This document shows positions 7,595-10,726 of a DNA stretch of 14,905 nt, piece after piece. The translations under genes and the position numbers were made by a program. The stretch is from a virus (lineage: Duplodnaviria > Heunggongvirae > Uroviricota > Caudoviricetes): the IMG/VR virus record IMGVR_UViG_641522650_000010, one strand, 5' to 3'. Below the pieces are notes generated by a model. The model was not told the origin of the DNA, did not search any database, and worked only from the letters and a program-made list of their open reading frames with translations. Within the stretch, counting starts at the first letter, position 1; the number at the start of each line of letters is the position of its first letter.

Positions 7595-7670
7595 TGGTGG
7601 CCCTTGCTGGATTTGAACCAGCGACCTGGCGATTATGAGTCGCTCGCTCTCACCACTGAGCTAAAGGGCC
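7595..7670 (-). tRNA. tRNA-Ile2 (anticodon CAU, lysidine type; ileX/ileZ-like); tRNA-Met cannot be excluded from the anticodon alone
   Basis: Manual fold: perfect acceptor ggccctt/aagggcc, D-arm gctc agtggtga gagc, anticodon loop cTCATAa, T-arm gctgg ttcaaat ccagc, encoded CCA; closely resembles E. coli ileX as I recall it. Confidence 0.8.
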
Positions 7671-7719: not shown

Positions 7720-8769
7720 TCAAACGATTAAATCCTGAACTTCCCTGACTGTCTGCTCAAAACGTCCGGTCTCCAGTTCAACGCCAATCGCACGACGCCC
7801 GAGCGCCAGTGCCGCTTTTACCGTTGAACCTGAGCCCATAAAAAAATCTGCAACCTGGTCTCCCGGACGACTGCTCGCGTTGATTATCTGCTGCAACATT
7901 TCTGCCGGTTTTTCGCACGGATGTTTCCCTGGATAGTACTGCACCGGTTTATACGTCCACACATCGGTGTACGGCACCTGCACCGTCACACCGAAATACC
8001 TCCGCAAATTTTTATATTCACTCAGCAGTTCCATATACTGCCGGCTCAGCTCACTGTATGTGCTGACCAGTTGGTAATGGGACTTTTCCAGTTCTCTCCG
8101 CTGATGTTTCTCTTCTGCCACCCGGGCAAACAGCGACTGTAATTTCAGATAATCGCTTTCGTTCGGTAGCTGCCACTGACTGGCACTGAACCAGTGCGAC
8201 ACCATGTTTTTCTTTCCTGTGGCATCTGCAATCTGTTTTGCCGTTATCCCCAGGGCAGCTCGCGCATCACGAAAGTAAGCAATCAGCGGGGCCATCACAT
8301 GCTGTTTCAGTACCCTGCCCTTCGCCGCATACCCGGCATCTTTCGGACGATACGGCCCCTGATAATGTTCCGCGAACAGAATGCGCTCTGTGGCGGGGAA
8401 ATACGCCCGCAGGCTTTCCTTGTTGCATCCGTTCCAGCGTCCGGACGGCTTCGCCCAGATAATATGGTTCAGCACACTGAAGCGTTCACGCATCATGATT
8501 TCGATATCAGATGCCAGGCGATGACCACAGAACAGGTAAAGACTTCCGGCAGGTTTCAGCACCCGCCAGAACTGCGCCAGACACTGGTCCAGCCACTTCA
8601 GGTAATCATCGTCGCCCTTCCACTGGTTATCCCAGCCCTCAGGCTTCACTTTAAAGTACGGCGGGTCCGTGACTATCAGGTCAACAGAATTTTCGGGTAA
8701 CGACCGGATAAATTCCAGGCAGTCGGCGTTGATTAACTCACAACTGGATATTTTTACAGTATTAAGCAT
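7720..8769 (-). CDS. Orphan DNA methyltransferase, beta-class amino-MTase (N6-adenine or N4-cytosine)
   Basis: 349 aa; motif IV DPPY near the N-terminus (DLIVTDPPY) and motif I FxGxG near the C-terminus (DFFMGSGST), the beta-class order, with a long insert between. No adjacent restriction endonuclease candidate. Confidence 0.85.
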   Translation of the reverse strand: MLNTVKISSCELINADCLEFIRSLPENSVDLIVTDPPYFKVKPEGWDNQWKGDDDYLKWLDQCLAQFWRVLKPAGSLYLFCGHRLASDIEIMMRERFSVLNHIIWAKPSGRWNGCNKESLRAYFPATERILFAEHYQGPYRPKDAGYAAKGRVLKQHVMAPLIAYFRDARAALGITAKQIADATGKKNMVSHWFSASQWQLPNESDYLKLQSLFARVAEEKHQRRELEKSHYQLVSTYSELSRQYMELLSEYKNLRRYFGVTVQVPYTDVWTYKPVQYYPGKHPCEKPAEMLQQIINASSRPGDQVADFFMGSGSTVKAALALGRRAIGVELETGRFEQTVREVQDLIV

Positions 8770-8801
8770 GGATCATTAAACCTGTCTCTGATAGGCTCAT
8801 T

Positions 8802-8820
8802 CTGCTTTTGCGCAAAGCAG
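8802..8820. promoter_or_regulatory. 19-bp imperfect palindrome 33-51 bp upstream of the methyltransferase start; candidate operator
   Basis: ctgcttttgcgcaaagcag: symmetric arms around a central GCGC. Placement fits a repressor/controller operator, but no binding data. Confidence 0.3.
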
Positions 8821-8863
8821 TGGGCCTGAGGTTTGCTTGTGAACCCAACGCATGAGCAGATGG

Positions 8864-8890
8864 CTGGTGGGTGCCCCTAACACCCACCAG
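8864..8890. other. Perfect 10-bp stem / 7-nt loop hairpin next to the upstream terminator
   Basis: ctggtgggtg (8864-8873) and cacccaccag (8881-8890) are exact reverse complements; loop cccctaa. Confidence 0.4.
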
Positions 8891-8904
8891 CCGCCCATTT
8901 ACCA

Positions 8905-8933
8905 CAAATAAAAAAGCCTTCAGGACTGAAGGC
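8905..8933 (-). terminator. Rho-independent terminator overlapping the stop codon of the small HTH-like ORF
   Basis: Minus-strand reading gccttca-gtcc-tgaaggc (7-bp stem) followed by ttttttatttg. Confidence 0.55.
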
Positions 8934-9117
8934 GTCTGTAACAACCGAACTGATAGTCTGCCAGACCCGCCATAACAAGTTGGGTCAGTATTAACTGACA
9001 GCGTTCGCGTGAAAGGTAAGTATTCTGCGCAATCTCCCCGACTGTCGCCGGTTCGGTGACGCTTAATTCATTAAACACCACTCTGGCGGTTTCTGTCATA
9101 TCCTGCTGTTTCAGCAT
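8920..9117 (-). CDS. Hypothetical small protein (65 aa) with a possible helix-turn-helix
   Basis: Internal ATG at 9117..9115 preceded by AAGGGAAAAAGAC; product MLKQQDMTETARVVFNELSVTEPATVGEIAQNTYLSRERCQLILTQLVMAGLADYQFGCYRRLQS. The segment TVGEIAQNTYLSRERCQLIL looks like an HTH. The ORF-track version (8920..9210) starts at an upstream GTG that overlaps the tR'-like terminator, which I consider less likely. Confidence 0.4.
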   Translation of the reverse strand: MLKQQDMTETARVVFNELSVTEPATVGEIAQNTYLSRERCQLILTQLVMAGLADYQFGCYRRLQS

Positions 9118-9239
9118 GTCTTTTTCCCTTTTCCGGTTAACGTGACACACCAATAACTCTTGTCGAAAAAGCCAGCAAGCTGAAAGACAGGTATTCACCG
9201 CCACCAGCACGTTTACTGTACTGGACCGATTTCAGCCAT

Positions 9240-9261
9240 AAAAAAACCCGCTCGCGGCGGG
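9240..9261 (-). terminator. Rho-independent terminator about 70 nt downstream of the Q gene (tR'-like)
   Basis: Minus-strand reading cccgc-cgcga-gcggg followed by seven U (plus-strand A-run 9240-9246). Confidence 0.55.
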
Positions 9262-9332
9262 TTTAAGCTGTGTGGCGAAGTAACCACTCTTAACATACTG
9301 ACATACTTTTTGCGGACCGCACTAATCATTTT

Positions 9333-9713
9333 TTACTTTTTTAGCAGCCAGTCGTCCATCTCCAGTCTTACCCCCAGCACAGACAAACATCCGTCAATAA
9401 ACCCTTCGGCTATCTGCATCTCAATTCGTATTGCTTTTTCGCTTTTCTTTCTCGTCCTGGCTATCTGTCTTTTTGATATTCGCAACAAATAATGAGCAAT
9501 GAGAAGCGAATACTCCTCAGGTTTTTTCTGCTTCAGACGAGCAAGACAGTTTTCAATGATAAGTCCGTCATCATCGCAGCAGGCCGGACGTGGTTTAGTG
9601 GCAGATGGTAAAAGTCCTTTGAATCCGGCAGCGATCGGAGAATAGTCCACCCCGGTGTTACCACTTGCAGCCCATGCCCCCCAGCGTTCAAGAACCATCT
9701 GAATATCACGCAT
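9333..9713 (-). CDS. Late-gene antitermination protein Q (QuuD-like)
   Basis: ATG at 9713..9711 with GGAG RBS; product MRDIQMVLERWGAWAASGNTGVDYSPIAAGFKGLLPS...CCDDDG... resembles the small Q antiterminators of E. coli cryptic prophages as I recall them. The ORF-track TTG start at 9728 adds 5 residues and is less likely. Confidence 0.75.
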   Translation of the reverse strand: MRDIQMVLERWGAWAASGNTGVDYSPIAAGFKGLLPSATKPRPACCDDDGLIIENCLARLKQKKPEEYSLLIAHYLLRISKRQIARTRKKSEKAIRIEMQIAEGFIDGCLSVLGVRLEMDDWLLKK

Positions 9714-9730
9714 CAACTTTCTCCACAAAA

Positions 9731-10726
9731 TCAGGACAGCACACCAATCGCCAGCGCGCGATCGATAAAACGAAATATCAGCTCCAGTTGGGAGCCATAC
9801 TTCTCTTCAAATGCCACGGTATCCGCATGCAGTTCGTCATGGTGTTTTCTGCACAAAGGCAACACAAAAAGGTCATGCGCTTTTGTTCCCATTCCACCCT
9901 GACCGTGACCTATCAGGTGGTGGGGATCATCAGCGGGCTTTCCACAACATGCACACGGCTGTGTCTTAACCCAGCGCGTGTACTTTTCATTAACCCAGCG
10001 GCGACGTTTTGGGCGTAACATAAAAGACTCCGGCGACTCCGGATCCACTTTCAGCGCCAGCACCTTTTTCGCCTTATCCTGGATGATGCTGGTGGCAGGA
10101 ACCGAAGGCACAAGGTCACTTTCCCGGGTAACAGTCGGCACAACAGGCTTCGGTAATCTCAGTGCCTTACGGGCTGCACTTTCCGGTAAGGCATCCGCCA
10201 GATCATTACGAATCAGCCACCAGCACAGTTCCGGCATTGTCACAACGTGACTGTCATCAAAACCGAGATCCCGACGCACAACAGACAACACCCAGCGGGC
10301 ACAGTTATCCGTTGCCATTGATTCCAGCCGTTCCGTGAACTGGTCACGGAGAAGATTGTCACAGTGCCAGCACAGACGGATTGCACCCGGAGCGTGTCGC
10401 ATTGTGGTCATGTTCTCGCTGTGCCAGTCGGAATGAGGCCACTGGCAGCCTTTTTCACGAAGTAACCAGCTTTCAAGACATTCCACGCCACCAGCACGAC
10501 GGATCACTTCCTCATTGCGGAACACGGCCCGAACGGCAGGATCATCCGCCAGCGGTTGTGATGCCGCCGGAACGGCACCACTGGCGAAAGATGAATAACG
10601 CTCCGGCTCAGGCTCCAGCAGGACACGCCCCTGCATAAACAGGGGCATCAGCTCTGAACCTGGTCTGAACAATACGATCCCCATACGCGGGGCAATTTCA
10701 GGGGTCAGTAGTGCTCTCACGGTCAC
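9731..10726 (-). CDS. DUF968-family prophage protein (YdfU-like) with C-terminal Cys/His cluster
   Basis: 331 aa from a GTG start one nucleotide after the upstream stop; C-terminus QPCACCGKPADDPHHLIGHGQGG...LCRKHHDELH has CxxC and paired His residues like HNH/zinc-binding nuclease folds. Position directly upstream of Q matches the Qin-prophage ydfU-quuQ arrangement as I recall it. Confidence 0.65.
   Translation of the reverse strand: MTVRALLTPEIAPRMGIVLFRPGSELMPLFMQGRVLLEPEPERYSSFASGAVPAASQPLADDPAVRAVFRNEEVIRRAGGVECLESWLLREKGCQWPHSDWHSENMTTMRHAPGAIRLCWHCDNLLRDQFTERLESMATDNCARWVLSVVRRDLGFDDSHVVTMPELCWWLIRNDLADALPESAARKALRLPKPVVPTVTRESDLVPSVPATSIIQDKAKKVLALKVDPESPESFMLRPKRRRWVNEKYTRWVKTQPCACCGKPADDPHHLIGHGQGGMGTKAHDLFVLPLCRKHHDELHADTVAFEEKYGSQLELIFRFIDRALAIGVLS

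Follow-up and report, generated by a model that had tools for sequence, protein, structure and literature searches.

In phage 21 (OL657228), which encodes a Q protein of the same family as the one considered here, the late regulatory cassette begins a few bases from the Q stop codon. The structural basis of Q21 action has been described (PMC6606751; bioRxiv 10.1101/651190). In coordinates of the phage 21 locus, the elements are as follows.

1332: Q stop codon
1339–1344: -35 hexamer, TTGACA
1347–1362: QBEu ATTGAGCA and QBEd AATGAGCA
1362–1367: -10 hexamer, AACACT
1374: transcription start
1375–1381: pause element (SDPE), TAAGCTG
1376–1423 (+3 to +50): terminator

The pR'-qut-6S RNA-tR' unit of phage lambda follows the same logic, with the late promoter just after Q and the Q site upstream of the -10, although lambda Q belongs to the unrelated protein family PF03589. 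A -10-like pause element at the transcript start, a short terminated RNA and Q-dependent read-through are features of lambda that are proposed here for the new locus as well. Lambda tR' lies at +194, compared with about +49 for the terminator described below. In the Shiga-toxin (Stx) prophages Sp5 and Sp15 of the Sakai strain, the PR' start determined by dRNA-seq and the 3' end at tR' determined by Term-seq are 258 nt apart (Sy et al. 2020, PMC7547250).

The DNA analysed here, referred to as the window, is a stretch of 14,905 nt from a tailed phage (IMG/VR record IMGVR_UViG_641522650_000010). We consider it probable that positions 9334–9240 on the minus strand form the late regulatory cassette of a lambdoid prophage with a Q of the Q21/Q933W family, operating by the mechanism proposed below. 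The Q gene, its upstream neighbor and the elements of the cassette are the following.

10726–9731, minus strand: gene for a DUF968/HNH protein, 5' of Q
9333–9713, minus strand: Q antiterminator gene, 126 aa (ATG at 9713, TAA at 9335–9333; PF06530, match to Q21 in the PDB)
9326–9334 (-46 to -38), minus strand: A-rich tract AAAAAATGA, in overlap with the Q stop codon; perhaps the proximal subsite of an UP element
9311–9320 (-32 to -23), minus strand: GCGGTCCGCA, with the palindromic core GCGG-T-CCGC; candidate Q-binding element at the -35 position
9295–9303, minus strand: -10 region of the extended type, TG (9303–9302), n, CAGTAT (9300–9295), i.e., TGtCAGTAT, placed by conservation among 37 modules
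9283–9295 (-7 to +6), minus strand: conserved block TGTTAAGAGTGGT, at least 90% conserved (W at -5) in the 37 modules
9292–9286 (-4 to +3), minus strand: TAAGAGT, candidate sigma-dependent pause element resembling TAAGCTG of phage 21
9288, minus strand: predicted late transcription start (+1, an A), by homology to the Sp5 PR' start
9272–9287 (+2 to +17), minus strand: small 5' hairpin of the predicted transcript (MFE structure)
9240–9264 (+25 to +49), minus strand: promoter-proximal intrinsic terminator (8-bp stem, 5-nt loop, U7)
8910–8933 (about +356 to +379), minus strand: second intrinsic terminator, hairpin-T6, overlapping the stop codon of a 65-aa ORF

Like phage 21, the interval has a Q site, here a candidate, that falls between the -10 and the place of a -35; it also has a TAAG-type element at the start site and an intrinsic terminator ending at about +50. 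The span from the Q stop codon to the end of the terminator measures 91 nt in phage 21 and 93 nt here; a compact interval is the norm for the family. Phage 21 has a consensus -35 (TTGACA), whereas the window has none, and the distance from the -10 to the TAAG element is shorter by 5 bp in the window than in phage 21. The phage 21 element consists of two 8-bp direct repeats, ATTGAGCA and AATGAGCA, at -27 to -12, in contrast to the single short palindrome at -32 to -23 of the window. Finally, the stem of the phage 21 terminator includes the pause element, whereas the window terminator is a separate hairpin. An earlier note on this DNA had proposed the short interval after Q as a unit of late promoter, Q site and terminator, a proposal that gains support from the Q family, the homology to PR', the conserved -10 and the phage 21 layout.

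The PF06530 profile matches the Q protein of the window over the whole of its 126 residues (E value 1.4e-52, 177 bits; Pfam profile search), and the Q21 chains of PDB entries 6p18 and 6jnx are matched with an E value of 7.5e-8. Judged from its sequence, it is an antiterminator of the family for which Yin et al. (bioRxiv 10.1101/651190) use the name Q21/Q933W (PF06530), and it is encoded immediately upstream of the cassette. Identity with Q933W is 48%, the divergence being concentrated at residues ~78–104, a putative helix-turn-helix (SKRQIARTRKKSEKAIRIEMQIAEG in the window Q, a different 25-residue stretch in Q933W). These residues align with helix H5 of Q21 and with the presumed recognition helix, and about 20 residues matching the long inter-helix loop of the Q21 DNA-binding helices are missing from the window Q; both statements depend on an alignment that is uncertain in the C-terminal half.

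Phages 933W, Sp5 and Sp15, whose Q is the one 48% identical to that of the window, have in common with it the position of the -10, the TAAGAGTGGTTAC block at the start site and the proximal hairpin followed by U7. They differ in the palindrome (TTACGATCGTAA vs GCGGTCCGCA), and a partial -35, TTTACG, is present in the Stx phages. Nothing in the window corresponds to the next 200 nt of Sp5, the part with the 74-nt StxS small RNA and its terminator; at this place the window has a 65-aa ORF and a DNA methylase gene, and a BLAST search with the 74-nt processed StxS RNA gave no significant match in it. The same terminator cassette is also carried by SfV and by an Stx2c phage, in both of which the window is matched from the hairpin (9263) onwards. 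SfV encodes a 250-aa Q and has the promoter TTGCAT-17-TAAGAT, both of other types than those of the window, and it continues past the terminator with the same 65-aa ORF and methylase gene. The Stx2c phage likewise has a different Q and promoter type, its -35 and -10 being read as TTGTTT and TAAATG. Because the same terminator stands behind different late promoters in SfV and the Stx2c phage, it is a portable first terminator of late operons, which recombination has put behind different Q/promoter modules.

Since the coordinates of Sy et al. refer to an older genome version, the 258-nt spacing was re-checked on the Sp5 sequence itself. It fits only A746 of 'ataagAgtgg' together with T1003 (locus L004), the last T in the T-tract of the distal terminator, and the mapped start A746 comes 7 nt after the Sp5 -10, TATCAT. 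In a BLAST comparison of this 258-nt transcript with the window, nucleotides 1–49 align to 9288–9240 with 82% identity (E value 5e-7), and the remainder has no significant match. In a search of more distant sequences with BLAST, positions 9296–9240 were ~84% identical to the segment just 3' of Q933W in many Stx1 and Stx2a phages. By homology to Sp5, we infer a late transcription start at about A9288.

A scan for consensus sigma-70 promoters gave no -35/-10 pair on either strand between 8600 and 9900. The earlier note had been unable to see such a pair by eye, which this result reproduces, and it had recommended promoter prediction on the minus strand of 9262–9360; the consensus scan of 8600–9900 returned no match there either. 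Comparison with relatives was more informative. The set comprised 80 viral contigs encoding relatives of the window Q, 77 of them loci with any downstream flank, and 53 of these loci provided 37 distinct modules for an alignment anchored on the palindrome. Their consensus reads ...AaAAAt.acTA.cGCGGTCCGCAaa..gt.t.ttA.t.TGtTAAG/AGTGGTtAC (slash before the predicted start). The 37 modules, that of the window included, have no -35 hexamer. Within the -10, at -12 to -7, A-11 and T-7 are at least 90% conserved and the adjoining positions vary, giving hexamers such as TAGTCT, TATTGT, TACTGT, TAACGT and TATCAT (TAnnnT type). The -10 of the window, CAGTAT, agrees with the consensus at 3 of 6 positions and is therefore weak; in the modules of the window group it is preceded by TG at -15/-14. 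Because there is no -35 hexamer and the -10 is weak, the late promoter can be detected by comparison only. Both the position homologous to the Sp5 start and the conserved -10 point to the same place, where a promoter would exist that has no -35 hexamer and leaves the consensus scan blank.

A second conserved feature of these promoters is an A6 tract at -46 to -41 (9334–9329). At -45 to -41 the modules read AaAAA, with 4 of 5 positions at least 90% conserved among the 37, and the tract is found in the Q933W clade also. It may correspond to the proximal subsite of an UP element, whose consensus, AAAAAARNR, it resembles. The promoter would rely on the extended -10 and, probably, on this UP-like element.

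The intrinsic terminator lies shortly downstream of the predicted start. The earlier note had placed a GC-rich hairpin with a U7 tract on the minus strand about 70 nt from the Q stop codon, and the distance found is 68 nt (9332–9265). Its coordinates for the terminator, 9240–9261, omit three A-T pairs at the base of the stem, but the hairpin and the T7 are as it described them. The hairpin, AAACCCGC-cgcga-GCGGGTTT at 9264–9244, has 8 pairs, 5 of them G-C, and a 5-nt loop, and it runs into T7 at 9246–9240. In shuffled sequences 1.3 terminator-like sites would be expected in this region, and 4 were observed. For the predicted 49-nt transcript (9288–9240), the computed fold of -18 kcal/mol (z = -3.07, compared with 200 shuffled versions) consists of the small 5' hairpin and the terminator hairpin. 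The former is probably not essential, because its position is not conserved in the group with a 142-aa Q. Among 58 distinct modules drawn from the two Q clades, 49 have a hairpin and T-run that end at +47 to +60, with 15 different stems, and most of the other modules differ from a full hairpin and T-run by a single stem mismatch. No Rfam family reached its gathering score: the values were 21.6 for Trp_leader (threshold 41), driven by the hairpin, and 18.3 bits for IsrK (RF01394; threshold 50) at 9241–9313 on the minus strand, due mostly to the terminator hairpin. IsrK is a small RNA of Salmonella prophages that is also made from an antitermination-regulated promoter (Sy et al., PMC7547250).

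How complete a block this hairpin imposes is a separate question. In Sp5 lysogens the 258-nt PR' RNA passes the equivalent hairpin without Q (PMC7547250), which means that some polymerases do so and that the proximal hairpin is not a complete block in Sp5. It might accordingly be argued that the hairpin is a leaky leader and not a working tR', that it shapes or stabilises the late RNA's 5' end or yields a short RNA as a by-product, and that the block controlled by Q is the second terminator (8933–8910). The PR' RNA of Sp5 and Sp15 lysogens would fit this, as it is 258 nt long and ends distally despite a near-identical hairpin-U7 at +24 to +49, and so would the presence of a second terminator in the window and of two annotated terminators, in the same arrangement, in SfV. 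Nevertheless, we think this explanation unlikely. The hairpin is a textbook intrinsic terminator, with an 8-bp GC-rich stem and U7; the arrangement is kept at +47 to +60 in the 49 of 58 modules in spite of the changing stems, and the phage 21 terminator occupies +3 to +50. In addition, RNAs of about 50 nt would presumably be missed easily by standard RNA-seq or by a Northern probe directed to the 3' part of StxS. Nor does it exclude a working first terminator, as tandem terminators could both be targets of Q. Tandem terminators of which the first is leaky are the most economical reading, and on this analysis the proximal hairpin probably acts as an incomplete block, with another terminator to follow.

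The conserved TAAGAGTGGT block, which spans the start, occurs once in the window, and the start-site block is shared with the Q933W clade as well. Within it, TAAGAGT is a tentative candidate for the pause element. From the centre of the window palindrome it is 24 bp downstream to TAAG and 16 bp to the -10; the annotated pause element of phage 21 lies 24.5 bp downstream of the QBEu centre and 16.5 bp downstream of the QBEd centre. It is because of this match to the subsite geometry of phage 21 that we regard TAAGAGT as the best candidate. When read in the phage 21 register, TAAGAGT has a G instead of a T at hexamer position 6; with the alternative +1 register, AAGAGT, position 2 is a T and not the critical A in two lineages (L079 and APSE-7). 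The element overlaps the start site, and to our knowledge it is closer to the -10 than any other sigma-dependent pause element. The polymerase that Q engages may be paused on TAAGAGT or may still be at the promoter -10. Two further -10-like elements, TACTTC (+7 to +12) and CAGCTT (+19 to +24), were discarded as they are not conserved.

The start is also bracketed, on the minus strand, by an inverted repeat of TTAAG (-5 to -1, 9289–9293) and CTTAA (+22 to +26, 9263–9267). Within the clade that has GCGGTCCGCA (clade A), the two arms, WTAAG and CTTAW, are perfectly complementary in 27/27 distinct modules. There are two haplotypes, and the outer base co-varies: GATAAG occurs with CTTAT (n=10 distinct modules) and GTTAAG with CTTAA (n=17). 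An RNA stem was rejected for this repeat, since the mapped start is downstream of the 5' arm and, in the Q933W clade, including the inducible Sp5, the arms are mismatched or deleted. We treat the repeat as dispensable or as a case of lineage linkage.

The remaining element, at the position where a -35 would be expected, is the palindrome. The exact 10-mer GCGGTCCGCA occurs once in the window and is centred on T9316, at -28. It is present in 53 of the 77 flanked loci, its distance from the Q stop codon ranging from -28 to +1487 nt, and it remains with this type of Q, always 32 nt before the predicted start, wherever the module sits relative to Q, be it inside the 3' end of Q (-28), directly after it (+1, +12), or 0.8–1.5 kb away behind an insert. 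The other 24 of the 77 flanked Q loci have no module within 1.5 kb downstream, a count to be read with a caveat as to selection. In every fragment carrying AAGAGTGGT, the sequence (C/T)GCGG(T/C)CCGCA stands exactly 19 nt 5' of it, and when AAGAGTGGT was used as an independent anchor, all fragments other than those of the 933W type were found to carry GCGGTCCGCA.

The second comparison set consisted of 80 loci retrieved with Q933W. Here, Qs with a helix of the Q933W type have TTTACGATCGTAAA at the position of the palindrome, centred at -27.5, and the QuuD-like Qs of 126 aa (…SDG(T/Y)IGKKLQK) have TTTACGTACGTAAA. The clades with a different helix-turn-helix thus carry TTACGATCGTAA (Q933W) or TTACGTACGTAA (QuuD-like) in place of GCGGTCCGCA, both centred at -27.5. 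Three helix-turn-helix classes are in this way paired with three palindromes at a single position, and the -10 position, TAAGAGTGGT and the terminator are common to all three. By sequence comparison, then, an element 5' of the -10 tracks the type of the Q DNA-binding helix. Because the palindrome changes with the helix-turn-helix of Q, we propose that GCGGTCCGCA is a candidate Q-binding element.

APSE-7, a phage of the aphid symbiont Hamiltonella defensa, has GCGGTCCGCA and a TAATGT -10 at the same spacing; there (L166, 800–860), the palindrome and -10 lie within the 3' end of Q, directly upstream of the variable toxin cassette (CdtB), a layout comparable to that of E. coli phages in which stx is placed behind PR'. 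Many relatives from IMG/VR (L032–L079) have 0.8–1.5 kb inserted between Q and the module of GCGGTCCGCA, -10 and TAAGAGTGGT, and in these loci the Q stop codon is followed by a hairpin of its own. Such inserts indicate that in this clade the late promoter sometimes lies at a distance from Q.

The only local direct repeat, AGTATGTC followed by AGTATGTT (9292–9307, minus strand), has an 8-bp period, overlaps the -10 and looks like the architecture of the Q21 element. It is specific to the lineage and was rejected as a Q21-style site (read from 9307 to 9292), as it is not conserved in modules with the same Q helix-turn-helix; an element of that style, two 8-bp direct repeats 5' of the -10, is absent from the window. 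The palindrome was also considered as an RNA hairpin and was ruled out, given that its loop would be 0–1 nt.

The half-sites of the palindrome are only ~5 bp apart, a spacing at which two helix-turn-helix domains would not easily share one face of the DNA. In the literature searched, no published Q-binding element for Q933W was found, and the part of the results of Zhang et al. 2018 (PMC6266700) considered here gives no element-level mapping of the Stx pR' regions. We suggest, as a tentative possibility, that part of the Q21/Q933W family (the window clade, Q933W and the QuuD-like proteins) reads a short site of two-fold symmetry at about -28 that replaces the -35. Each helix-turn-helix variant would then have its own palindrome (GCGGTCCGC, TTACGATCGTAA and TTACGTACGTAA), unlike the tandem direct repeats of Q21. 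The proteins of these three clades also seem to be without a counterpart of the long inter-helix loop of Q21.

Short palindromes are typical of dimeric regulators, and the only structurally solved relative, Q21, uses direct repeats. The palindrome could consequently be an operator at which another regulator represses or activates the late promoter, with Q docking elsewhere, for example at the TAAGAGTGGT block, which is common to Q clades with similar conserved N-terminal parts. This seems rather improbable to us, as the palindrome takes three forms that go with three helix-turn-helix types of Q, its position fits the Q21 subsite geometry, and no other gene travels with it; the 65-aa winged-helix ORF is found behind other late-promoter types too (SfV with its 250-aa Q and the Stx2c phage). 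It is very doubtful that the hairpin serves only to end the early rightward message of Q, like the terminator at the end of any operon, with the late promoter elsewhere, e.g., nearer the tRNAs or nanS-p: a hairpin after a coding gene and the lack of a consensus promoter in the interval would suit that, but the interval is base-for-base homologous to the dRNA-seq-mapped PR', the -10 is conserved at the right distance, the GCGGTCCGCA/-10/TAAGAGTGGT module is followed by a terminator also where as much as 1.5 kb separates it from Q, and both the exact 10-mer GCGGTCCGCA and TAAGAGTGGT are unique in the window.

In the proposed mechanism, the preferred reading of the cassette, host polymerase with sigma-70 would start at about A9288 using the extended -10 and no -35. 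Without Q, most transcripts would end at the hairpin-U7 (9246–9240), giving an RNA of ~49 nt, and those passing the first hairpin would stop at the second terminator (8933–8910, with ends at 8915–8910). Q would bind the palindromic GCGGTCCGCA at -32 to -23 through its helix-turn-helix and then engage the promoter-proximal polymerase, probably held by sigma region 2 re-binding to TAAGAGT. It may then ride on the polymerase as a nozzle at the RNA exit channel, as has been shown structurally for Q21, so that terminator hairpins could not form. Late transcription would proceed through the 65-aa ORF, the DNA methylase gene, the tRNAs and nanS-p. The start site in this sequence, the binding of Q to the palindrome, the pause element and the Q-dependent read-through are all predictions from comparison with the systems above.

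The genes that would be reached by this transcript, and the insertion sequences of the window, are listed here.

8920–9117, minus strand: first ORF of the predicted late transcript, a 65-aa winged-helix-like protein with a weak TrmB match
8769–7720, minus strand: DNA methylase
7421–7670, minus strand: three tRNA genes (CAT anticodon, Arg-TCG, Arg-TCT)
6918–6685, minus strand: DUF1737
6651–4957, minus strand: nanS-p esterase
4780–3507, minus strand: IS3-type integrase-core ORF
2492–3310, plus strand: IS3-type integrase-core ORF
1–2389, plus strand: IS66 family element (orf1, TnpB, transposase)
14905–14252: further insertion-sequence ORF

The product of the 65-aa ORF matches TrmB with an E value of 0.0024, below the Pfam cutoff, and its homologues are annotated as hypothetical or as TrmB-family proteins in related phages. 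Its stop codon lies within the stem of the second terminator (8910–8933), and the unit of ORF and terminator is also present in phages with other Q types, namely SfV, phiP27, mEp460 and the Stx2c phages. Between the second terminator and the methylase gene, at 8829–8893, there is a long perfect inverted repeat (GGCTGGTGGGTG…CACCCACCAGCC) with no T-run, which has a weak Rfam match to Pseudomonas P26 (24 bits, threshold 36). The tRNA trio is arranged like the ileZ-argN-argO genes that precede stx in Stx phages, and about 500 bp with several hairpin terminators separate the tRNAs from DUF1737.

No stx genes are present in the window, and none follow the tRNA trio. Long-tailed Stx2a phages have a Q of this type too, and we regard the window prophage as a toxin-less relative of these phages. 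The closest relative is PPyecE_EH1910, with 98.5% identity over 8700–9800 of the window. The window contains no holin or endolysin genes. Insertion sequences are dense at both ends of the window, and the IS66 and IS3 elements interrupt the region where lysis genes would be expected, so the cassette may be a remnant that no longer controls them.

A search of 5,426 complete E. coli genomes with Q and the cassette (query 9200–9720) gave matches covering 80% or more of the query in 214 of them. In this respect the finding is one of routine annotation, as it provides the late start and the first stop of a common E. coli prophage type, and the cassette, consisting of promoter, probable Q docking site and first terminator, is of a known design that is seen in phage 21 and the Shiga-toxin phages. 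The potentially new element is one, the palindromic, clade-specific candidate Q-binding site. The comparison yields a template, i.e., an A-tract, a clade-specific palindrome at -32 to -23, a -10, TAAGAGTGGT and a terminator by about +50, which may be used to locate the late promoter in Stx phages and their relatives, where the output of toxin hinges on this switch, and to predict which Q and promoter are compatible there. A candidate variant of Q-DNA recognition within the Q21/Q933W family is suggested as well. If the symmetric site is indeed read by Q, there would be a simple code for which Q allele activates which late promoter, and this code would extend to the expression of Shiga toxin in mosaic phages.
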